From an uncultured virus (IMG/VR IMGVR_UViG_3300005326_000004) (taxonomy: Duplodnaviria > Heunggongvirae > Uroviricota > Caudoviricetes), in the IMG/VR virus record IMGVR_UViG_3300005326_000004: a stretch of 20,000 nt of DNA. One strand, written 5' to 3'. Below are positions 1 to 8,803 of this stretch, in pieces (within the stretch, counting starts at the first letter, position 1; the number at the start of each line of letters is the position of its first letter). Below the pieces are notes generated by a model. That model made no database searches. It saw only the letters and a program-made list of their open reading frames with translations, and was not told where the DNA came from. The translations under genes were made by a program, and so were the position numbers.

Positions 1-726
1 TTAGATCGTGTGTCGTATTGTACATTACGGTACAGTAAGGAAGAATGTTTGGATTTACCAGACCAGATATATCAGGTGCGTACGGTTGAACCATCCGTTG
101 AGCAAACGCAAGTTACTCAAGAAGTCGTTTTAGGAATTCACGTCAACTCTCTTACCGAAAGCAACGTTGAGTACCATACGCAAAAATTGGTACAAATCAC
201 CGGGGGTTTCTTACTGGATAAGGAAGGTAGTTGTGAAGTATACAAAACAAATCCGAAGTTGCAGGAATTGGGAGAAACCCTTTCACAAATATCTGGTAAG
301 TGTATCATATATCATTATTACGTCAAAGAATCCGAATTGATCAGTGAGTACCTGAAAGATATGGGGTACTCGTTTGTTGTGGTAAATGGTAACGTAAGTA
401 AAGCCGAACAGAAAAAGCAAATTGATTCATTTATCAACGGGAATGTACAAGTACTTCTCGCAAATCCAAATAGTGGAGGTGAAGGGATTGATGGTTTACA
501 AGTATCATCCACCATCATATATTACAGCAGAAGTTATATGGGTAGTATATTGCGTCAACAATCGGAAGGGCGTATACACCGGCAGGGCCAAAAAAACAAC
601 TGCGTGTATATAGACTTGGTTATGCATAACACAATAGACGAAATACTTTTTGATAATATGTCCAATTGTTCAAAACAATTTAAGAGTGTACTTACGTATT
701 TGCAAAAAAAGTATAAAAAAGGTTGA
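1..726 (+). CDS. SNF2/SF2 helicase, C-terminal part (5' truncated by window)
   Basis: Frame is open from base 1. Contains 'LRYSKEECLDLP', helicase C motifs 'LLANPNSGGEGIDGLQ' and 'QSEGRIHRQGQ' (motif VI), and 'YIDLV..NTIDE'. Confidence 0.9.
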   Translation, partial: LDRVSYCTLRYSKEECLDLPDQIYQVRTVEPSVEQTQVTQEVVLGIHVNSLTESNVEYHTQKLVQITGGFLLDKEGSCEVYKTNPKLQELGETLSQISGKCIIYHYYVKESELISEYLKDMGYSFVVVNGNVSKAEQKKQIDSFINGNVQVLLANPNSGGEGIDGLQVSSTIIYYSRSYMGSILRQQSEGRIHRQGQKNNCVYIDLVMHNTIDEILFDNMSNCSKQFKSVLTYLQKKYKKG

Positions 727-751
727 CATATATACTATCATATGGTATATT
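723..751 (+). promoter_or_regulatory. sigma70-type promoter
   Basis: TTGACA (723-728), 17-nt spacer, TATATT (746-751) preceded by TGn (extended -10). The -35 box contains the helicase TGA stop. Confidence 0.75.
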
Positions 752-794
752 ATAATTGTGGGGGGAGGTGATACCGAACCCCATAAAAATAAGA

Positions 795-839
795 TGAAAC
801 CATATAACATACCGGACGTATAATATTATATGGGGGGGG
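795..839 (+). promoter_or_regulatory. putative ECF-type promoter, motif copy 1
   Basis: TGAAAC-N16-CGTA followed by TAATATTATATGGGGGGGG; a related motif recurs at 1888-1930. Confidence 0.45.
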
Positions 840-870
840 AAGGGAAGCCACCAATTGAAAGGGAAGGACA

Positions 871-1137
871 ATGAATATAAACACCACTGATACCACCCCA
901 ACGCCAAAGGATTATGATAATGCGTTGGATATTTTCTCACTGGAAAAACGGTATGACAAACATACCTACACCAAGGAAGAAAATATCGTGTTGTTCAATG
1001 CTATCCTGGCGTTCGTTATCCGTTACCGGGCTCACATCGAATATTACGGATTGGAAGAGTTCCTTACCAAGTTTGCTGAAACGTACGTTAAGGACGGATT
1101 GAATGCCGCTCTTGACAATGTTATCATGAAAGGGTAA
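871..1137 (+). CDS. hypothetical early protein, paralogue of 1142..1627
   Basis: Purine-rich RBS (GGGAAGGA). Shares 'FV(I/L)RY...I...GL..F...F...Y' with the next ORF. Confidence 0.75.
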   Translation: MNINTTDTTPTPKDYDNALDIFSLEKRYDKHTYTKEENIVLFNAILAFVIRYRAHIEYYGLEEFLTKFAETYVKDGLNAALDNVIMKG

Positions 1138-1141
1138 GACA

Positions 1142-1627
1142 ATGAAACGTTACATTGAAAAAACCACACCCGAGCAGGACGAAAAAAACGCCATACGTAT
1201 TTTCCGTATTTACAAAATGGCCAGGAACGGTAATATTGTACTTGATAAAGTGTTGAGAGAAATCTCCCTGGATATTCGGGGGGCTTGCACTCCCGGCCAG
1301 AAGAAGCGTTTTTACACGCAAATTTCTGCTATGAAGGATGCCGGTCTGTTCGCTCCGGATGAAACGGATGAAGAGAACATCTTTTACATCTCCGCTGCTA
1401 CTGAATTTGTCCTTCGTTACACAGATATCATTGATCAGTGCGGTCTGAATTATTTTATTGAGGACTTTTCCAGGTGGTACATTGAGCGGTCTAACAATGA
1501 ATCCCATGCGGAGTATACCAATGAATCGTTTGGACCGGGAAACGGGCTCGATCCTGATGGAACCAAACCCGTGTATGACGCTTGGGCTGCCGGGGATACC
1601 AAACACAACCGTACTGACGAGGCGTAA
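1142..1627 (+). CDS. hypothetical early protein (paralogue family); 3' end overlaps hammerhead 1
   Basis: 161-aa ORF packed directly after the previous gene; similar to both 871..1137 and 1964..2209. Confidence 0.8.
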   Translation: MKRYIEKTTPEQDEKNAIRIFRIYKMARNGNIVLDKVLREISLDIRGACTPGQKKRFYTQISAMKDAGLFAPDETDEENIFYISAATEFVLRYTDIIDQCGLNYFIEDFSRWYIERSNNESHAEYTNESFGPGNGLDPDGTKPVYDAWAAGDTKHNRTDEA

Positions 1628-1666
1628 AGCGCCGAAACGGGAGAATACTCTCTCCCGTATACGGTT
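1607..1666 (+). ncRNA. type I hammerhead ribozyme 1 (cleavage GUA|, after 1659)
   Basis: Stem I AACCGTA/TACGGTT; core CTGACGA (1614-1620); stem II GGCG-TAAAG-CGCC; GAAA (1634-1637); stem III CGGGAGA/TCTCCCG; U16.1-A17. All core nucleotides are present. Confidence 0.93.
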
Positions 1667-1695
1667 AGCAGTACCAGCAACAAAGGAGGTTTATT

Positions 1696-1887
1696 ATGTA
1701 CGAAGTCACTTCCACAAGAAACGGTTATGTTCTGTGCTATGTCAATGTCCGGAGCATTGCGGATGCCAGACATATGGCAGAATGCCTTGAAAAGGAAGAC
1801 CCGTCCATAAAGGTGATTATTTACCATGTTCATTACGTTTTGACCAAGGGTTCTTTTTGCAAGATTATCCGTGAAATTGAAAGATAA
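1696..1887 (+). CDS. hypothetical protein (63 aa)
   Basis: Strong RBS AAAGGAGG just upstream of the ATG. Confidence 0.75.
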   Translation: MYEVTSTRNGYVLCYVNVRSIADARHMAECLEKEDPSIKVIIYHVHYVLTKGSFCKIIREIER

Positions 1888-1930
1888 TGGAACCACCCCG
1901 TAGGTCCAAACGTGTAATATATATGGGGGG
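1888..1930 (+). promoter_or_regulatory. putative ECF-type promoter, motif copy 2
   Basis: TGGAAC-N17-CGTG followed by TAATATATATGGGGGG; matches 795-839. Confidence 0.45.
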
Positions 1931-1963
1931 ATGGATAACGTACTCAACAAAAGGAGCAATACA

Positions 1964-2209
1964 ATGGAAAAGAATAACAACTACAATCCGTCCAAGCACA
2001 CGATGGAGACCGCGCTTCACATCTACAAAATGGTGAAATATGATAACATTGCGATGGAAGACGCAGTGAAGGAAATCGCTCTCACAATCGAAGAATGCCG
2101 GGAACACGAAAATCAGCATGACATTGCCGAAGTCATGGAAGTTCTGATGGAGAAGAAGAAGGAAATGGAATTGGAGGAAATGCTCAAAAATGTTTCGATT
2201 ACGGCGTAG
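1964..2209 (+). CDS. hypothetical early protein (paralogue family); stop abuts hammerhead 2
   Basis: RBS AAGGAG at 1951-1956 favours ATG 1964. 'IYKMVKYDNIAMEDAVKEIALTI' aligns with 'IYKMARNGNIVLDKVLREISLDI' of 1142..1627. Confidence 0.8.
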   Translation: MEKNNNYNPSKHTMETALHIYKMVKYDNIAMEDAVKEIALTIEECREHENQHDIAEVMEVLMEKKKEMELEEMLKNVSITA

Positions 2210-2273
2210 TTATCCTGACGAGTCGTGTAGCGACGAAACAGAGTGAACCCAATCCGTTCACTCTGTCGATAAC
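2209..2273 (+). ncRNA. type I hammerhead ribozyme 2 (cleavage GUC|, after 2267)
   Basis: Stem I GTTATC/GATAAC; core CTGACGA (2215-2221); stem II GTCG-TGTAG-CGAC; GAAA (2235-2238); stem III CAGAGTGAAC/GTTCACTCTG; U16.1-C17. Confidence 0.95.
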
Positions 2274-2305
2274 AACCAAAAACCCATAACGAAAAGGAGC
2301 AACCA

Positions 2306-2479
2306 ATGGATGAATTAATTCACTACTTTGGTTGCGGTATTTTTGAAGGTTTTGGAGTGGTATTATTCGTGTATATCAAAAATAAGTTTTTCAGCAAAGT
2401 GGAACAAAAGGAATCCGAATTGAAGGAAGCGTTTCCGAACTTCCATTTTCCGATTGAAGAAGGTGAGTTGTATGATTAG
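2306..2479 (+). CDS. small membrane protein, 57 aa (not in ORF track)
   Basis: RBS AAAAGGAG. Translation MDELIHYFGCGIFEGFGVVLFVYIKNKFFSKVEQKESELKEAFPNFHFPIEEGELYD; N-terminal hydrophobic stretch followed by lysines. Confidence 0.7.
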   Translation: MDELIHYFGCGIFEGFGVVLFVYIKNKFFSKVEQKESELKEAFPNFHFPIEEGELYD

Positions 2480-2540
2480 CATTATTGGTGTTGCAATCAT
2501 TTGGGGAGCCGTTTACTACGTAATATGGAGGATGAACTAA
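2472..2540 (+). CDS. 22-aa hydrophobic peptide (not in ORF track)
   Basis: MISIIGVAIIWGAVYYVIWRMN, preceded by AAGGTGAG; its TAA overlaps the next ATG (TAATG). Confidence 0.5.
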   Translation: MISIIGVAIIWGAVYYVIWRMN

Positions 2541-2746
2541 TGGAAACATTATTGACTCCTTTGGTCCAGGGACTGGTATTCGGATGTGGCACAGCGGTCA
2601 CTTTCGGAATCGTTATGCTCGCTGAATGGTTGATCAAGGAAACGTTCAAGCACAGGGGAGGGGGTAATCCCCTCCTCCATTGGGGGATACAATGTTTTTA
2701 CGCAATGCAGAAGAAGTACTCCATATATTGGAGCAAAACGCAATAA
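2540..2746 (+). CDS. small membrane protein
   Basis: GGAGG RBS before ATG 2540; TM-like segment LVQGLVFGCGTAVTFGIVMLAEWLI. The 3' end is uncertain because it runs through a hairpin and overlaps the next ORF. Confidence 0.55.
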   Translation: METLLTPLVQGLVFGCGTAVTFGIVMLAEWLIKETFKHRGGGNPLLHWGIQCFYAMQKKYSIYWSKTQ

Positions 2747-2856
2747 TTCGTAACCGGGGAGAAGTGGTTGACATGCACATTGTACGGCAATTGTTCAGCC
2801 AATTTATGGTGGAGGATGTCGAAGATTTGGAAGATTCCCCTACATTCAAGGAATAA
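2692..2856 (+). CDS. hypothetical protein, 54 aa, acidic tail (not in ORF track)
   Basis: GGGGGA RBS. Translation MFLRNAEEVLHILEQNAIIRNRGEVVDMHIVRQLFSQFMVEDVEDLEDSPTFKE; ends 3 nt before the next start. Confidence 0.6.
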   Translation: MFLRNAEEVLHILEQNAIIRNRGEVVDMHIVRQLFSQFMVEDVEDLEDSPTFKE

Positions 2857-2859
2857 GAC

Positions 2860-3150
2860 ATGGCTCGATTGCCGTATTACAGCGTACACAAAATCAAGAA
2901 ATTCCATGAAGAACACGGAGGTACGTTTTTTGATAAAAAACGTTTCGAGTTCAACCGATGGCATATGATTGACTTTGGGTACAAACGTTACAAGGGGGAA
3001 ACATACCTATACAAAAAAGTTGGTAAACTGGTTGTATGGCGTTTGGATAAAGTCACCGGGGAATTAATCGAAACCTCGTTTAGTGACTTTGATCATTCCG
3101 TTGTTTTTTGCAGACCAGCAACACGGTGGAATTCACGGAGGAATAAGTAA
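2860..3150 (+). CDS. hypothetical phage protein
   Basis: AAGGA RBS; TAATG coupling to the next gene. Confidence 0.7.
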   Translation: MARLPYYSVHKIKKFHEEHGGTFFDKKRFEFNRWHMIDFGYKRYKGETYLYKKVGKLVVWRLDKVTGELIETSFSDFDHSVVFCRPATRWNSRRNK

Positions 3151-3455
3151 TGGCTATAAAATCAACAGAAATTGAATGTGTTGATGTATACGCTTATGGC
3201 CTCGCTGCCGAATATCGGTTTACCATGCGAGTCCCAAAAATGCCCGATTCCAAACAGCAGATCCTGCTGGCAATCAAGGACGCACAAACGTTAAACGAAG
3301 GAGATCTCTACCCACACCTGATCAACAATCCCATCCGGTATATTTCGTTACCGGGAGGCAAAAGTTATTTTGCCGTGAACAAAACAAAATGTGTTGGCTA
3401 TTCATTCAGGGAAGTTATTGAAATCAGTAAAAAGGAGATGAAATATGAAGTTTGA
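3150..3455 (+). CDS. hypothetical phage protein
   Basis: GGAGG RBS; coupled to both neighbours. Confidence 0.7.
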   Translation: MAIKSTEIECVDVYAYGLAAEYRFTMRVPKMPDSKQQILLAIKDAQTLNEGDLYPHLINNPIRYISLPGGKSYFAVNKTKCVGYSFREVIEISKKEMKYEV

Positions 3456-3774
3456 AGTGGCAAAACGGGAGAGACCTTCCCATTACCGGAAAAACATGGA
3501 CCCCACTGTCTGGTCTTTTTTGGAGGCCGTGGATGCATTGGAAAACCAAGATGGATTGTGTATTCTCGTCCCTTGGGAACCGAGTGATACAGGATTAACA
3601 CTGAAAGCCAAGAAGCAAAGAATCCTTTCGTACCTACATCGGTACCTTTCAAACAAAAAATTCTCCGTTCTCAAAATGGATGAAGACAATACGTTGGGGA
3701 TTTTCCGCAGGTCTGATACCCCAGTGGTGAAGGGTAAAATACACAACGTCAATAAAATGGAAAAAACATGTTGA
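3445..3774 (+). CDS. hypothetical protein, possibly small DNA-binding
   Basis: AAGGAG RBS; basic 109-aa ORF. Confidence 0.7.
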   Translation: MKFEVAKRERPSHYRKNMDPTVWSFLEAVDALENQDGLCILVPWEPSDTGLTLKAKKQRILSYLHRYLSNKKFSVLKMDEDNTLGIFRRSDTPVVKGKIHNVNKMEKTC

Positions 3775-3799
3775 CATAACATATAATATGTATTATATT
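3771..3799 (+). promoter_or_regulatory. sigma70-type promoter
   Basis: TTGACA (3771-3776), 17 nt, TATATT (3794-3799). Same design as 723-751, again containing the upstream TGA stop. Confidence 0.75.
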
Positions 3800-3809
3800 A
3801 TATGTCTTG

Positions 3810-3862
3810 GTACAGGGGTGGGGCTTTTCACGGTAACGGTTCATCCACCCCCATCCCTGTAC
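3810..3862 (+). other. 5'-leader stem-loop
   Basis: GTACAGGGGTGGGG / CCCCATCCCTGTAC form a 14-bp stem (one G-U) with a 25-nt loop, directly after the promoter. Confidence 0.6.
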
Positions 3863-3887
3863 ATAAATACAATTATGGAGGCACACA

Positions 3888-4070
3888 ATGAAATTAGGTG
3901 AATTGGTTGACTTGTTGACCAGTTTGCTGGAAAACGGCTCAAGCAATCCGGATGATACCGTAATCGTGGAAGCGTACCCACACAGTTACGATATTGAAGA
4001 TATTCAAATCGGGTACGAAAGTGGGGAGCATTTTGTTTCCATCGTTGCAAAGGAAGGGCGAGCATGGTAG
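3888..4070 (+). CDS. hypothetical protein (60 aa)
   Basis: GGAGG RBS; typical small phage ORF starting 'MKLGELVDLL'. Confidence 0.7.
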   Translation: MKLGELVDLLTSLLENGSSNPDDTVIVEAYPHSYDIEDIQIGYESGEHFVSIVAKEGRAW

Positions 4071-4840
4071 GTACAGATCGTGAATTGGTCAAAAACAATT
4101 TCCGCACAACGGAAGATGCTGTTATGAACGTACCGCAGCCGGAGTTCACTAACACATGGAGGCCGTACGCACACAACATTATCATTGAAGGGCTCACCCG
4201 AGTGACCAGGGAAATGGGGCTTACGGTTGTTCACAAACAGTATTCCCTGAATGAGAAAGGTACGCAAATGTATGGGGCCTGGGGAATTGATACCGATATG
4301 AAAAAAGGGTCCGAAGGTCACCACATATATCAAGCCATCATATTTCGTAATTCGATTGACAAGGCGTTTTCTTTCGGCATTGCGGGAGGAACGGACACCT
4401 GGGTATGTGAGAACCTGGCTGTGTGGGGAAATTTCATTGAAATCCGGAAACACTCGAGTTCTTTGGACAGGACGGAATTGGTTTCGGCAATGTTCAAAGG
4501 AATCAAATCCCTCAAGCCCGAATTGGATAAAGTCATTGAATGGCATGATCTCATGAGGGAAATTCGGCTGGATACCAAGACGGTTGAAGCCCTGGCATAT
4601 CAAGCCATCATGCAAGGGGTAATCAATCTGAAAAAGTTACCCGTGTTCCATCGGTTGCTTTTCGGTGAGGATCACCCGTACGATAACACTACGTTGTTTG
4701 GATTCCACGGGGCATGTACCGAGGTTTTGAGGGATGGTCAAATCAATTCAACGATGATCGAACGCCAGGAGAAGTTGAATACGTTGATCAAGATGGAATG
4801 TCCCGCACTGCATGAGGTGTATGGTCCTAACGACATATAA
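4064..4840 (+). CDS. DUF932-family protein
   Basis: Motifs 'TWRPYAH' and 'FRNSIDKAFSFGIAGG..TWVCENL' resemble the DUF932 signature. Confidence 0.75.
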   Translation: MVGTDRELVKNNFRTTEDAVMNVPQPEFTNTWRPYAHNIIIEGLTRVTREMGLTVVHKQYSLNEKGTQMYGAWGIDTDMKKGSEGHHIYQAIIFRNSIDKAFSFGIAGGTDTWVCENLAVWGNFIEIRKHSSSLDRTELVSAMFKGIKSLKPELDKVIEWHDLMREIRLDTKTVEALAYQAIMQGVINLKKLPVFHRLLFGEDHPYDNTTLFGFHGACTEVLRDGQINSTMIERQEKLNTLIKMECPALHEVYGPNDI

Positions 4841-4879
4841 AGGGGTTTTATGCAAGGCACAACGTGTAAGGGTCCACGC

Positions 4880-5013
4880 GCACCCCCGATGGTAAACACA
4901 TAAGTAATCAAGAAGTACCATACCTAAACCCAGGTCAAAAACCATAGGTAATAAAAACATAAGGGTACAGCAACGTAAATGTACATACGAGCACCCCCGA
5001 TGGTAAACACATA
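4880..5013. repeat. 23-bp perfect direct repeat GCACCCCCGATGGTAAACACATA x2
   Basis: Copies at 4880-4902 and 4991-5013 (111-bp period) in the non-coding gap upstream of the primase. Confidence 0.9.
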
Positions 5014-5038
5014 TAGTATATGAAGTCAAAATATGGTG

Positions 5039-5069
5039 AAAGGGGAGGCATGGGAAGCACTCCCCTTTT
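5039..5069 (+). terminator. hairpin or possible intrinsic terminator before the primase
   Basis: AAAGGGGAG...CTCCCCTTTT inverted repeat ending in Ts. Confidence 0.45.
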
Positions 5070-5091
5070 AAAACCAATTCGGAGCCAGCAT

Positions 5092-6069
5092 ATGAATGTC
5101 AAAAAAATACTCAATGCATTTGGAATCATGTACGAGGAAACGCATCCAGCGGTTTCCAAAAAGTGCGTTGGCATTGACTGCCCGTACTGCCATGATACCG
5201 GTAAGCATATGGGTATTTTTCTTGACACGGGGAAAGCGTTTTGTTGGAAATGTCAAAAAACCCGGTTCATATCCCAAGTACTTTACAAATTGAAAGGGGT
5301 AACACAGGAACAGTTTGAAGCGGTTTCCGGTATACGGGTACGAAATGATGATCAACCAAAGAACAATTTGGACCGGATATTCAAAAAAACGAATACCAAT
5401 TATGTACAGGTGGAGGCAGATAACTCTGAAATCATAAAACACTTTTTATCATTTGAATCCATCAGCAGTAAACCGTATTTATCAGCAATCCATCATGTAA
5501 TGTTGGATTATGTTACATCCCGTTTCACTTGGGATGAATTGAAGTTATACGGTGCTGGGTATGCTCTCAGCGGGCCTATGATGAATCGGCTTGTAATCCC
5601 GTACCCAGCACCGTTTATTGGACCACCAATAGGTTTTGTGGGGAGGGATTTTACCGGGATAGCCCAACGGAAATATTTTGTTACACCAGGGCTCTCACTA
5701 CATTCACACGTATACCCAAATAGTGCATTTGGGGATAGACGAACGGATGTACTGGTTGTGGTAGAAGGCATTTTCGATTCATGGGCTATTACGGATTATT
5801 TGGCAGTGGCTTTATGCGGAAAAGCCATTTCAATCAAGCAGATTTCAAAAGTTATATCAATGTACCCAACAATGGATATGACCCTTGTAATCTGTTTGGA
5901 TGGAGATACGTCAATCCGTGATCGGGGAAATGTACAACGTGAGTTAGGGGTATTTTTCAAAAATTCGGTTATGGTGAACTTACCGGAGTTATTGGACCCG
6001 TCAAGTATACCAACCAATGAATTATCGTATTACATTGACAAAGGAGTTGAGTCACATGGGAAAGATTAA
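5092..6069 (+). CDS. DnaG-like DNA primase (Zn finger + TOPRIM)
   Basis: CPYC...CWKC zinc ribbon, 'IGFVGRDF', and TOPRIM motifs 'VVVEGIFD' and 'ICLDGD'. The GGAG RBS favours ATG 5092, although the ORF is open from 5020. Confidence 0.88.
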   Translation: MNVKKILNAFGIMYEETHPAVSKKCVGIDCPYCHDTGKHMGIFLDTGKAFCWKCQKTRFISQVLYKLKGVTQEQFEAVSGIRVRNDDQPKNNLDRIFKKTNTNYVQVEADNSEIIKHFLSFESISSKPYLSAIHHVMLDYVTSRFTWDELKLYGAGYALSGPMMNRLVIPYPAPFIGPPIGFVGRDFTGIAQRKYFVTPGLSLHSHVYPNSAFGDRRTDVLVVVEGIFDSWAITDYLAVALCGKAISIKQISKVISMYPTMDMTLVICLDGDTSIRDRGNVQRELGVFFKNSVMVNLPELLDPSSIPTNELSYYIDKGVESHGKD

Positions 6070-6241
6070 AACGGATTTGAAGGAATTGAGTCCGAACGAA
6101 TACAAAAAGAAGTGGTTGACCATCAGAGCATATTCGGAAAAATACGGATGGAACAAAGACACAATCTACAAATGGGTAAAGAAAGGGAAAATTGAAGCGC
6201 GGAAATTCGGAAAAATGATCCTCGTTCTCGATGCCAAATGA
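6056..6241 (+). CDS. HTH (excisionase/MerR-like) DNA-binding protein
   Basis: 'WLTIRAYSEKYGWNKDTIYKWVKKGKIEARKFGK' is a typical HTH_17 pattern; AAGGAG RBS before ATG 6056. Confidence 0.8.
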   Translation: MGKIKTDLKELSPNEYKKKWLTIRAYSEKYGWNKDTIYKWVKKGKIEARKFGKMILVLDAK

Positions 6242-6262
6242 TAATCTTCTTGGGGGTTAATT

Positions 6263-6769
6263 GTGGATACGGTAATTCATAAAACAATCGTTAAATTCTG
6301 TTATGAATTTAAAAAAAGGAACCCTCATATATTGGATGAAGTGGATGATCTGATCTGTGAAGCATACGTGCTACTTCCAAAAATTGAAAAAATGTACGAC
6401 AAGGAACAACACGTTTTGTTTACCACATTCCTTTGGAATGGGTTATACAGATACTTTTTGGATATGGTTGAATCAGACCGTAGTGGGGTATTCACATCAT
6501 TGGATGAATTAACGGAGTCCGAAGAATACCCCATTGAATTTCCATCCCAACGGATAACCTCATTTCCACCCGCCTTCCTGAACAGTTTATCCAACAATGC
6601 CCGTTTGTATGTTGAAACCATCTTGGACTTTCCGGAAGAGTTGGAAACGTTCATGAGTCGTAAAAACAAAAAGTACCCGTTCAAGTACCAGGTGGGTCAA
6701 TATTTGGGATTCAATAAAACGGAGGTTCACCGTATTCAACAGGAAGTTTTGGAGAAGTACATTTATTAA
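6263..6769 (+). CDS. RNA polymerase sigma-factor-like protein
   Basis: Region-2-like 'DDLICEAYVLL.KIEKMYD......FTTFLWNGLYRYFLDMV'; C-terminal HTH-like 'QVGQYLGFNKTEVHRIQQEV'. Confidence 0.65.
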   Translation: MDTVIHKTIVKFCYEFKKRNPHILDEVDDLICEAYVLLPKIEKMYDKEQHVLFTTFLWNGLYRYFLDMVESDRSGVFTSLDELTESEEYPIEFPSQRITSFPPAFLNSLSNNARLYVETILDFPEELETFMSRKNKKYPFKYQVGQYLGFNKTEVHRIQQEVLEKYIY

Positions 6770-6784
6770 AAAAGGAGTAAATCC

Positions 6785-7195
6785 ATGTGTCTTAATATAC
6801 GACTTGGTAAACGGATAATGAAAAAGGATACCACGATTTATAGAGTAGTAGAAGTACGTGATGGTTTATATTACTCTTGCCTTTTCGATAAGGATAGTGG
6901 TTTTCATCACGGAGTAAACCGTGCAGTAGTCTGTCCTGTTGTGTATATGACAAAAAAAGGTAGACGAATGTATCCATCCGGTTATCATTGTTTCACAAAA
7001 CGTAGTGATGCAAAAATATATAAAGAAGAATTTTTGGAAGCGCTTTACAAGTGTCTTGACTTACCGTTACCATACTATAAAATTGTTGTGTTCACTATTC
7101 CACAAGGAGTAAAAACATATGCGGGATATACTAAATTAGAAAACACAGATAGAAAAATGTATACGTTGGTTTCCCCCATACTTGTTTTGAAATGA
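6785..7195 (+). CDS. tandem paralogue 1 (MCLxIRLG / YPSGYHCF family)
   Basis: AAGGAG RBS; shares motifs with the next two ORFs. Confidence 0.85.
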   Translation: MCLNIRLGKRIMKKDTTIYRVVEVRDGLYYSCLFDKDSGFHHGVNRAVVCPVVYMTKKGRRMYPSGYHCFTKRSDAKIYKEEFLEALYKCLDLPLPYYKIVVFTIPQGVKTYAGYTKLENTDRKMYTLVSPILVLK

Positions 7196-7210
7196 ATGAA
7201 AGGGTAAACT

Positions 7211-7645
7211 ATGTGTCTTGATATACGCCTTGGTAAACGGATAATGAAAAAGGCTACCACGGTTTACAAAGTGGTACGGGTTATTTACCTACGCGGTCAG
7301 GAGATTTATACACCATGCTTTTTCCCGTTGTCCCCTGTTTTTAAAAAAGGTGTTAATCATGCGGATGTGACTGCAATTTTGTATTCCACATATAGGGGCT
7401 ACCATACATATCCATCGGGTTATCATTGTTTCCAGAAAGTGGGGGATGCCGAAGCATATATGAAGGAGTACTTGAATGGTGAGCTTGCACATGATGAATC
7501 CGTCAAAATTGTTGAATTCACCATCCCGCGAGGAGTGGAAGTATATGCGGGCTACACCTCGGTATTACCATCCACACATTTGAGGAATAGTCCAGTAGTT
7601 GGCAAACTGTATACGTTGGTTTCCCCAATTCTCATTTTGGAATAA
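7211..7645 (+). CDS. tandem paralogue 2
   Basis: MCLDIRLG...YPSGYHCF...IPRG...LYTLVSP. Confidence 0.85.
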   Translation: MCLDIRLGKRIMKKATTVYKVVRVIYLRGQEIYTPCFFPLSPVFKKGVNHADVTAILYSTYRGYHTYPSGYHCFQKVGDAEAYMKEYLNGELAHDESVKIVEFTIPRGVEVYAGYTSVLPSTHLRNSPVVGKLYTLVSPILILE

Positions 7646-7662
7646 ACGAAAGGAATACACTT

Positions 7663-8085
7663 ATGTGTTTAGATATCCGCCTGGGAGACAAAGTTCTAAT
7701 GAGGGACACGGTTGTTTACAAAGTGGTAAGGTATTACAAACAAGGTGCAATGTCGTTTTTTGAACCGTGTTTCTTTGGAAGATACAGACATTTCAAAAAA
7801 GGTGTAAACTACGCAAGTGTACAACCAATTGAATATTATACATCGAAAGGGTTACGTACGTACCCGTCCGGGTATCATTGCTTTACGAGACGGGAAGCTG
7901 CAAAAATCTACATGGAAGAATTTTTTCAGGAGGAAGGTGCAACAATTTTGGAGTTTGTTATCCCAAAAGGTACCAAAGTATCCACCGGGTATACGGAAGT
8001 GTTTGATATAGTTGAACTTCGCAAATTGTATACGTTGGTTTCCCCGGTAATTGTGTGGAATAGAGAAGAAAGGTATGGTATATAA
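7663..8085 (+). CDS. tandem paralogue 3
   Basis: MCLDIRLG...YPSGYHCF...IPKG...LYTLVSP. Confidence 0.85.
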   Translation: MCLDIRLGDKVLMRDTVVYKVVRYYKQGAMSFFEPCFFGRYRHFKKGVNYASVQPIEYYTSKGLRTYPSGYHCFTRREAAKIYMEEFFQEEGATILEFVIPKGTKVSTGYTEVFDIVELRKLYTLVSPVIVWNREERYGI

Positions 8086-8608: not shown

Positions 8609-8803
8609 ATGCCGTTGGATGTGATCATAAGAGGAAAAACAATCCACATTGAAGATAGTGAACGTGTTCAATGTGAGATATGGACTCGGGTAATGGGTTA
8701 TTACCGACCTGTAAGTGAGTTCAATATCGGGAAGGTCCAGGAATTCAAAGACCGTGTTTCCTTTATTGAAAGGGGAATAGATGGCAACACGTCATTACCA
8801 TAA
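8609..8803 (+). CDS. nrdD: stand-alone NrdD C-terminal glycyl-radical-domain-like protein (64 aa)
   Basis: 'CEIWTRVMGYYRPVSEFNIGKVQEFKDR' matches the class III RNR C-terminal motif (RxxGY.RP...N.GK..E...R); GGGGAGGAG RBS. Confidence 0.8.
   Translation: MPLDVIIRGKTIHIEDSERVQCEIWTRVMGYYRPVSEFNIGKVQEFKDRVSFIERGIDGNTSLP

Follow-up and report, generated by a model that had tools for sequence, protein, structure and literature searches.

A hammerhead ribozyme that shares its catalytic core with the end of a phage gene, probably as a by-product of packing against stop codons

Hammerhead ribozymes have been described in prophages, in which, according to the accessible text of Perreault et al. (2011; PMC3088659), multiple copies flank single genes or short gene blocks. 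Processing of long transcripts was proposed as their role, and cleavage was shown for three of the prophage arrangements. In the available part of a 2019 review (PMC6765202), the role of hammerheads in phages and prophages is described as unproven, with further work needed to define their purpose. Here, we analyse a stretch of 20 kilobases (kb) from an uncultured virus (IMG/VR record IMGVR_UViG_3300005326_000004), hereafter called the window, which contains two hammerheads, HH1 and HH2, on the same strand. The matches in Pfam and PHROGs to a helicase, a primase, a tape measure protein and an endolysin identify the source as an uncultured tailed phage or prophage. Among sequencing runs, this DNA was found in a single DNA run, a groundwater metagenome from which it probably stems, and in no RNA run. 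The first hammerhead, HH1, is a genuine member of the class as judged from its sequence, and its 5' part doubles as the last codons of the open reading frame (ORF) at positions 1142-1627. We consider it probable, if by no means certain, that this overlap is a by-product of the packing of ribozymes against stop codons and not a regulatory gate.

HH1 is a complete type I hammerhead on the plus strand, at positions 1607-1666, with the RNA sequence AACCGUA-CUGACGA-GGCG-UAAAG-CGCC-GAAA-CGGGAGA-AUACUC-UCUCCCG-UA-UACGGUU (its elements are listed in Table 1). All of the core nucleotides of the hammerhead (C3-A9, G12 A13 A14, A15.1-U16.1, and an H17 that is not G) are present, and the helices consist of standard pairs throughout, with 7 base pairs (bp) in stem I, 4 bp plus a U-G in stem II and 8 bp in stem III. 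The criteria given in the accessible text of PMC3088659 allow no mispair at 1.1-2.1, 10.1-11.1 or 15.1-16.1 and rule out short stems with more than one mispair, and in HH1 the three core-adjacent pairs are intact (A1613-U1660, G1621-C1633 and A1637-U1658). HH1 thus has every class-defining feature that can be tested from sequence, and self-cleavage is predicted for it.

The bare core pattern is found twice in the window, compared with an expectation of 1.17 matches, and is not significant alone. Rfam release 15 reported neither HH1 nor HH2 at the gathering score; the best match below the threshold was a permuted Hammerhead_3 alignment that covers only 1606-1643 (21.8 bits, threshold 48.5, E 1.6). 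A covariance model, R1, was derived from 70 distinct viral hammerheads of at most 62 nucleotides (nt), from which the window was left out. The source sequences for this model were gathered with a pattern that fixed only the core and stem II, and they were parsed by a custom script, after which the pairs were checked. In the training set, stems I and III show many pair types, though the parser had demanded pairing. With R1 run on the 20 kb with filters off, HH1 was recovered at 1608-1665 with 54.5 bits (E 2.1e-16) and HH2 with 48.6 bits (E 2.2e-14). These were the sole strong matches, the next best being 7.9 bits, and the score of HH1 exceeds that of most family members. That Rfam did not report the two ribozymes reflects the limited reach of its seed models and does not point to a missing class-defining feature.

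The predicted folding of HH1 is consistent with this assignment. The minimum free energy structure obtained with RNAfold for positions 1600-1675 is the hammerhead fold (z = -4.37), and none of 200 shuffled sequences folded as well. The pairing probability of stems II and III is at least 0.9 in all contexts up to 760 nt, with 0.98 for stem III in every folded context, and that of stem I is 0.43-0.93. Inspection by eye of the flanks of HH1 did not reveal a complement to either loop II (UAAAG) or loop III, no systematic search for a tertiary contact having been made.

ORF 1142-1627 finishes within HH1, whose first 21 nt double as its final six sense codons and its stop codon (AAC CGT ACT GAC GAG GCG TAA, 1607-1627). 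The shared segment comprises the 5' strand of stem I, the CUGACGA of the core, the 5' strand of stem II and the first three bases of loop II. The preliminary description of this DNA had given the end of the ORF as N-R-T-D-E-A-stop, with which the sequence and its translation agree exactly. It had also claimed that the catalytic core is dual-coded with the stop codon in loop II, and the parser likewise places the UAA at 1625-1627 at the start of that loop, where it forms bases one to three.

ORF 1142-1627 looks like a gene from its sequence properties. Codon log-odds were trained on 15 confident genes of the window, which themselves score 0.17-0.49, and on this scale the ORF scores 0.254 bits per codon, with its frame at the top of the six frames for the ORF as a whole and for each of its halves. 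Over the last 40 codons the ORF frame scores 0.225, compared with 0.297 in one minus-strand frame, and over the last 20 codons before HH1 it scores 0.366, compared with 0.335 in one minus-strand frame. A putative ribosome-binding site, GAAAGGG, lies 5' of the ATG, and the ORF is on the same strand as its neighbours and packed equally tightly. The encoded protein of 161 amino acids, P0001, is an orphan. No homologues were found in viral contigs or in 5.8 billion protein clusters, an exhaustive HMMER search of 1.84 billion representatives returned only the query, and there was no Pfam or PHROG match. The proteins P0001, P0003 and P0004 are cluster singletons that stem from one data set filed in three sources. 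In a single-sequence AlphaFold model of P0001, residues 121-161 are modelled as coil with a predicted local distance difference test score (pLDDT) of 35-42; the mean pLDDT of the model is only 46, and a coiled tail is thus weakly hinted at by a poor model.

The placement of stop codons relative to hammerheads was surveyed in three scans of viral contigs with differing stem II compositions, which gave at least 354 sources including the window. In these, at least 229 different complete hammerheads preceded by 250 nt or more of sequence were parsed, in 207 sequence clusters. Of the same-strand ORFs with 50 or more codons that end between -150 and +60 of C3, the longest was taken as the upstream gene, and all counts and fractions below are among the matches listed. 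Such an ORF was present for 213 of the 229 parsed hammerheads, with no ORF in range for the other 16. The upstream stop codon lies more than 10 nt 5' of stem I in 40 cases and 1-10 nt 5' of it in 39, is immediately adjacent to stem I in 16, spans its 5' edge in 41 (the HH2 type), falls inside stem I in 35, coincides with the UGA of the CUGA core in 29 and lies beyond the core in 13, including HH1. The stop thus abuts or overlaps the ribozyme in 134/213 and overlaps it in 118, and the gap that separates it from stem I has a median of -1 nt (quartiles -6 and 3; n=191), with sharp peaks in the position histogram at -9/-8/-7, -3 and +1. On the 3' side, the next start codon follows the ribozyme at a median distance of 24 nt (n=176). 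Hammerheads of this class thus overlap the stop codon as a rule, and genes that read through the core are exceptional (6%). Among the 13 stops beyond the core, five are at +11, two at +12, one at +15 and five further on, and the five at +11 belong to HH1 and to the hammerheads that we refer to as L188, L250, L290 and L329.

The position of the stop codon in HH1 can be understood from the ribozyme sequence itself. The hammerhead core has three reading frames, one of which is always shut by its UGA, while the other two need a stop codon from stem I or loop II. ORF 1142-1627 has no stop in frame in stem I and the UGA of the core is out of frame, and it therefore reads CU-GAC-GAG-GCG to the UAA of loop II. 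The loop II consensus of R1, UaAAg, is the same as the UAAAG of HH1. Among the 205 cluster representatives from outside the window, loop II begins with U in 103, and a stop triplet is found at its first base in 65, whatever the frame of the upstream gene. By this comparison, the UAA in loop II of HH1 follows the consensus of the family and does not represent an adaptation, and the survey suggests that HH1 is a rare extreme of the usual tight packing against stop codons.

The same sequence constraint can be seen in the proteins. The hammerheads L188, L250, L290 and L329 score 40-59 bits by R1, and the upstream proteins that stop at +11 end in RTDEA (window), LTDEG (L188), LTEEA (L250), ITDEA (L290) and RSDES (L329). 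Only their tails are similar, the proteins being otherwise unlike each other. Each of the genes continues in frame across the hammerhead core as far as the stop codon in loop II, and for this reason the tail [T/S]-[D/E]-E-[A/G/S] on these unrelated phage proteins is dictated by the ribozyme. If the overlap is a by-product of packing, P0001 would have no need of its own T-D-E-A ending.

Two of the upstream proteins have families in which the history of the tail can be followed. For L290, 29 homologues were found, 20 of which were aligned with the query. The ITDEA tail is present in 3 of the 21 aligned proteins, namely the query and relatives at 93% and 87% identity, and the other 18 are without it; one of these ends in VTNK, two have another, longer tail, and 15 stop a few residues past an LKW motif. 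The alignment identifies this tail as a recent, lineage-specific addition that the protein would not need. For L250, 11 homologues were found, and SLTEEA ends 11 of the 12 aligned proteins, down to 65% identity, the most distant one ending in SVLA. The invariant SLTEEA is preceded by a variable linker rich in insertions and deletions. Constraint at the level of the RNA would be the simplest reason for the persistence of the tail, and selection for the overlap is another possible reason. A search of DNA for the L250 family gave only two loci, both encoding proteins 100% identical to the query, one of them on the contig of L250 itself.

Several observations weigh against a by-product of packing. 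The pile-up of stops in 134/213 could reflect a functional link between termination and folding, besides genome compaction. For two of the reading frames, termed B and C, a stop codon is present within the 5' half of the ribozyme in 110/205 representatives each, compared with 54-68/205 in a 3' half of equal length. The L250 family indicates that the read-through layout can stay stable over long divergence. Furthermore, the gene calls of the survey are crude, with a rival ORF of similar length in 6 of the 13 cases beyond the core, the sample covers only three stem II compositions, and the ORFs of seven other loop-II stops gave no match in Pfam or PHROGs.

HH1 and HH2 would most likely cut a long early transcript co-transcriptionally or soon after its synthesis. 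By analogy with the class, the cut in HH1 is expected between 1659 and 1660. This would leave the stop codon on the upstream message, at a distance of 32 nt from its new 3' end, which would be formed by the hairpins of stems II and III and bear a 2',3'-cyclic phosphate. A 5'-OH would be at the head of the downstream message, followed by an unstructured, A/C-rich leader of 36 nt that bears the Shine-Dalgarno sequence. A terminating ribosome would have to melt stems I and II, so that folding and termination would be mutually exclusive at any moment. This occlusion should apply equally to most phage hammerheads and would probably amount to a brief kinetic delay, not to a regulatory gate.

The preliminary description had raised the idea that cleavage is gated by translation, such that ribosomes in the 5' half of HH1 would keep the ribozyme unfolded and the RNA would be cut only when upstream translation is low or absent. 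The fate of the downstream message would then be coupled to the translation of the upstream gene. A ribosome with the UAA at 1625-1627 in its A site holds about 12-15 nt of downstream RNA in its channel and blocks stems I and II, and with this footprint the 5' strand of stem I, the core and stem II (1607-1633) would lie inside or at the entry of the terminating ribosome. The abutting or overlapping stops of the survey imply that interference with stem I is near-universal and could be exploited, and the stability of the SLTEEA overlap in the L250 family (11/12) is also in line with a gate. However, reading beyond the core is seen in just 13/213 cases; most genes stop at stem I, where occlusion would be shorter, and a deep overlap is exceptional. 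The loop-II UAA is consensus sequence, and the equivalent tail is missing from 18/21 members of the L290 family. Stops at -8 or -3 would occlude the ribozyme too, and irreversible cleavage needs but one ribosome-free interval, so that translation would impose a short delay at most. Finally, the sole phage relative that was found via the helicase fragment, the viral contig L357 (47% identity), has no hammerhead (best R1 match 8.1 bits); the ribozyme is therefore no integral part of the control of such operons. Taking these observations together, we regard a gate on HH1 as rather unlikely.

A broader version of the same idea is that the hammerheads of the class are translation-coupled devices, in which a terminating ribosome, or the passage of ribosomes through the 5' half as in HH1, sets when the ribozyme folds, HH1 with its 21 nt of codons being the most strongly coupled form. 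If this were true, translation of the upstream gene would govern when and to what extent the operon is cut, and thereby how stable and how strongly expressed the adjacent early genes are relative to one another. We hold such class-wide coupling to be distinctly unlikely.

It may also be hypothesized that the ribosome assists the ribozyme, by stripping away upstream mispairing when it stops at or in the element, so that translation would insulate the fold and promote cleavage. HH2 offers a case for such an effect. RNAfold predicts the hammerhead fold as the minimum free energy structure of HH2 (z = -3.64), and when the upstream coding sequence from 2100 is included, the predicted probability of stems I and II falls to 0.0-0.01, with positions 2104-2130 pairing with the 5' half of HH2. 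The tight spacing in the family, with its median of -1 nt, fits this idea as well. Yet the competitor of HH2 is a thermodynamic prediction only, with a modest z-score of -2.2, and co-transcriptional folding may sidestep it. HH1 needs no such help, since its predicted fold was kept in all contexts that were tried, with probabilities of at least 0.9 for stems II and III and of 0.43-0.93 for stem I. Ribosome-assisted folding appears, on balance, very unlikely.

That there is no real dual coding, because ORF 1142-1627 is not translated to its end or is no gene, or because HH1 is an inactive relic, so that the overlap would be without molecular effect, would agree with the orphan status of P0001 and its lack of Pfam and PHROG matches, with the poor structure model and with a cleavage that is only predicted and for which no loop-loop contact was identified by eye, but it is highly improbable given the best score of six frames for the ORF (0.254, and 0.366 in the last 20 codons before HH1), its ribosome-binding site, strand and tight packing, and the fit of HH1 to every core position with a score above most family members.

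The packing explanation, to which we return, places the two ribozymes in an early operon of a phage, in a region of small orphan genes that is bounded by the helicase and the primase (Table 1). HH1 and HH2 are 543 nt apart on the same strand and enclose a block of two genes (1696-1887 and 1964-2209), as expected for the clustered phage arrangement, in which two or more same-strand hammerheads flank short gene blocks. The TAG stop codon of ORF 1964-2209 straddles the start of stem I of HH2 by 1 nt, the two sharing a G. A strong Shine-Dalgarno sequence is located 16-20 nt 3' of each ribozyme, and the start codon follows 29-32 nt past the ribozyme end. We considered the possibility that stem I masks a downstream ribosome-binding site, which was ruled out by the distance of 16-20 nt from each ribozyme to the following Shine-Dalgarno site. 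No terminator-like site was found on the plus strand of positions 1-2666.

Table 1. Positions of the two hammerheads, their elements and neighbouring features in the window.
Feature	Position	Strand	Basis or remark
Helicase, C-terminal part	10-726	+	Pfam/PHROGs
Orphan gene P0001, 161 amino acids, ends ...KHNRTDEA*	1142-1627	+	ORF, codon log-odds
HH1 stem I, 5' strand AACCGUA (also N, R and first base of T)	1607-1613	+	parser, fold, R1
HH1 core C3-A9, CUGACGA (also parts of ACU GAC GAG)	1614-1620	+	parser, R1
HH1 stem II GGCG/CGCC, with loop II UAAAG at 1625-1629	1621-1624/1630-1633	+	parser, fold
HH1 core G12 A13 A14 A15.1 (GAAA)	1634-1637	+	parser
HH1 stem III, 8 bp from A15.1-U16.1 inward, loop AUACUC	1637-1644/1651-1658	+	parser, fold
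HH1 predicted self-cleavage site, after H17 = A1659 and before U1660	1659-1660	+	hammerhead consensus geometry
HH1 stem I, 3' strand UACGGUU	1660-1666	+	parser, fold; 5' end of predicted downstream product
Shine-Dalgarno AAAGGAGG	1682-1689	+	upstream of gene 1696-1887
Orphan gene, 63 amino acids	1696-1887	+	weak coding score, 0.059
Gene P0004, 81 amino acids (92 amino acids, P0002, if started at the upstream ATG 1931)	1964-2209	+	TAG stop at 2207-2209
HH2, type I, stem I GUUAUC/GAUAAC, loop II UGUAG, 11-bp stem III	2209-2273	+	parser, R1
HH2 core CUGACGA	2215-2221	+	parser
HH2 predicted cleavage, after C2267	2267	+	hammerhead geometry
Shine-Dalgarno AAAGGAG	2293-2299	+	3' of HH2
Gene downstream of HH2	2306-2479	+	ORF, coding score
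DUF932-like gene	between helicase and primase-like genes	+	profile matches
Primase-like gene	5020-6069	+	Pfam/PHROGs

The N-terminus of P0001 and that of the gene before HH2, if started at 1931 (1931-2209), are weakly alike, with 10 of 25 residues identical (pairwise E 5e-5) and a motif, F/LxIYKM...NI....V.EI.L.I, that is common to both. This likeness hints at a duplicated module consisting of a gene plus its ribozyme.

The contig L357 keeps the order of the helicase, the DUF932-like gene and the primase, with different small genes in between. Because it shares the gene order but has other small genes and no hammerhead, the stretch of the window that carries the ribozymes is a variable region. 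The exact pattern of the HH1 core and stem II was found elsewhere in only one unrelated element when metagenome and genome contigs were searched; this element is represented by two metagenome records and an Acidobacteria metagenome-assembled genome, and it has no upstream ORF. Since the core string is otherwise confined to an unrelated element and L357 is without a hammerhead, the ribozymes are sporadic insertions and not fixtures of this type of operon. Positions 1-8000 of the window had no blastn match to known deposited phages.

We also observed that several viral contigs carry at least four hammerheads within a few kb, one between almost each pair of small genes. These include L010-L012, L260 and L261, which are located on one viral contig of 66.6 kb, as well as L059-L062, L246-L247 and L290.

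In the remainder of the window, the plus strand carries many small genes besides the helicase, the DUF932-like and the primase-like genes, and the minus strand carries the endolysin, tail fibre-like genes and a tape measure protein of 1086 amino acids. Under table 11, neither the long ORFs nor any of the three stop codons show unusual behaviour, which ruled out an alternative genetic code. Three tandem paralogous genes on the plus strand (6785-7195, 7211-7645 and 7663-8085) encode proteins of 136-144 amino acids that start with MCL[ND]IRLG... and all match phrog_13450, a family of unknown function. An ORF of 64 amino acids on the same strand (8609-8803) matches just the last 30 positions of the NrdD profile PF13597 (E 7.7e-9) and resembles a stand-alone fragment of the glycyl-radical C-terminus of an anaerobic ribonucleotide reductase.

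Our analysis adds two clean hammerhead examples that have been overlooked by Rfam annotation, and HH1 is an unusually clear case of a single stretch of RNA that serves both as codons and as catalytic core. The pile-up of stop codons in stem I, in the UGA of the core and in loop II, together with the imposed tail, is relevant to the annotation of phage gene ends, and the convergent tail could mislead both this annotation and the clustering of proteins. The pile-up also provides a simple handle on the interplay between translation and ribozyme cleavage. If the two processes do not interact, the overlap is a curiosity of genome compaction.

The closest counterparts of HH1 are the four other hammerheads with a stop codon at +11, which are read in the same frame (NCU GAN GAG GNN stop), place the stop at the same distance from C3 and impose a like tail. 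These four are from uncultured viral contigs. The upstream proteins and the phages are unrelated, the comparison of phages having covered the hammerheads of the first scan, to which none of the four loci belongs. The upstream genes of L250 and L290 have homologues, whereas that of the window has none. Engineered hammerhead switches mask a ribosome-binding site and act on downstream initiation through stem I. The window resembles these switches in that the folding or cleavage of a hammerhead would be linked with bacterial translation, but its two Shine-Dalgarno sites (1682-1689 and 2293-2299) are outside the ribozymes.

A more distant likeness is offered by the discontinuous hammerhead of the mammalian Clec2 genes, which, in the accessible part of PMC6765202, is like HH1 located close to the site where translation ends, just 3' of it, such that cleavage alters the 3' end of the message. 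It differs in being eukaryotic and wholly contained in the 3' untranslated region, past the stop codon and ahead of the poly(A) signal, in being split by a long insertion and in having no overlap with codons.

We found no statement about an overlap between hammerheads and stop codons in the full-text literature, subscription journals not being covered, and terms for a relation to stop codons are absent from the available portions of PMC3088659, PMC6765202 and PMC8782182. The relation to an upstream reading frame is likewise undescribed for the prophage hammerheads in the accessible text of PMC3088659, whereas the gene in the window runs 21 nt into the ribozyme. In other respects the similarity to the prophage hammerheads in that text is close. 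They have the same core, the same three-stem fold and an open stem I, their copies are, as in the window, spaced by some hundreds of bases along one strand, with one or two small genes enclosed between them, and the role proposed for them is the same, namely to convert long transcripts into gene-length messages. By sequence and position, HH1 and HH2 fit this known clustered arrangement of phage hammerheads.

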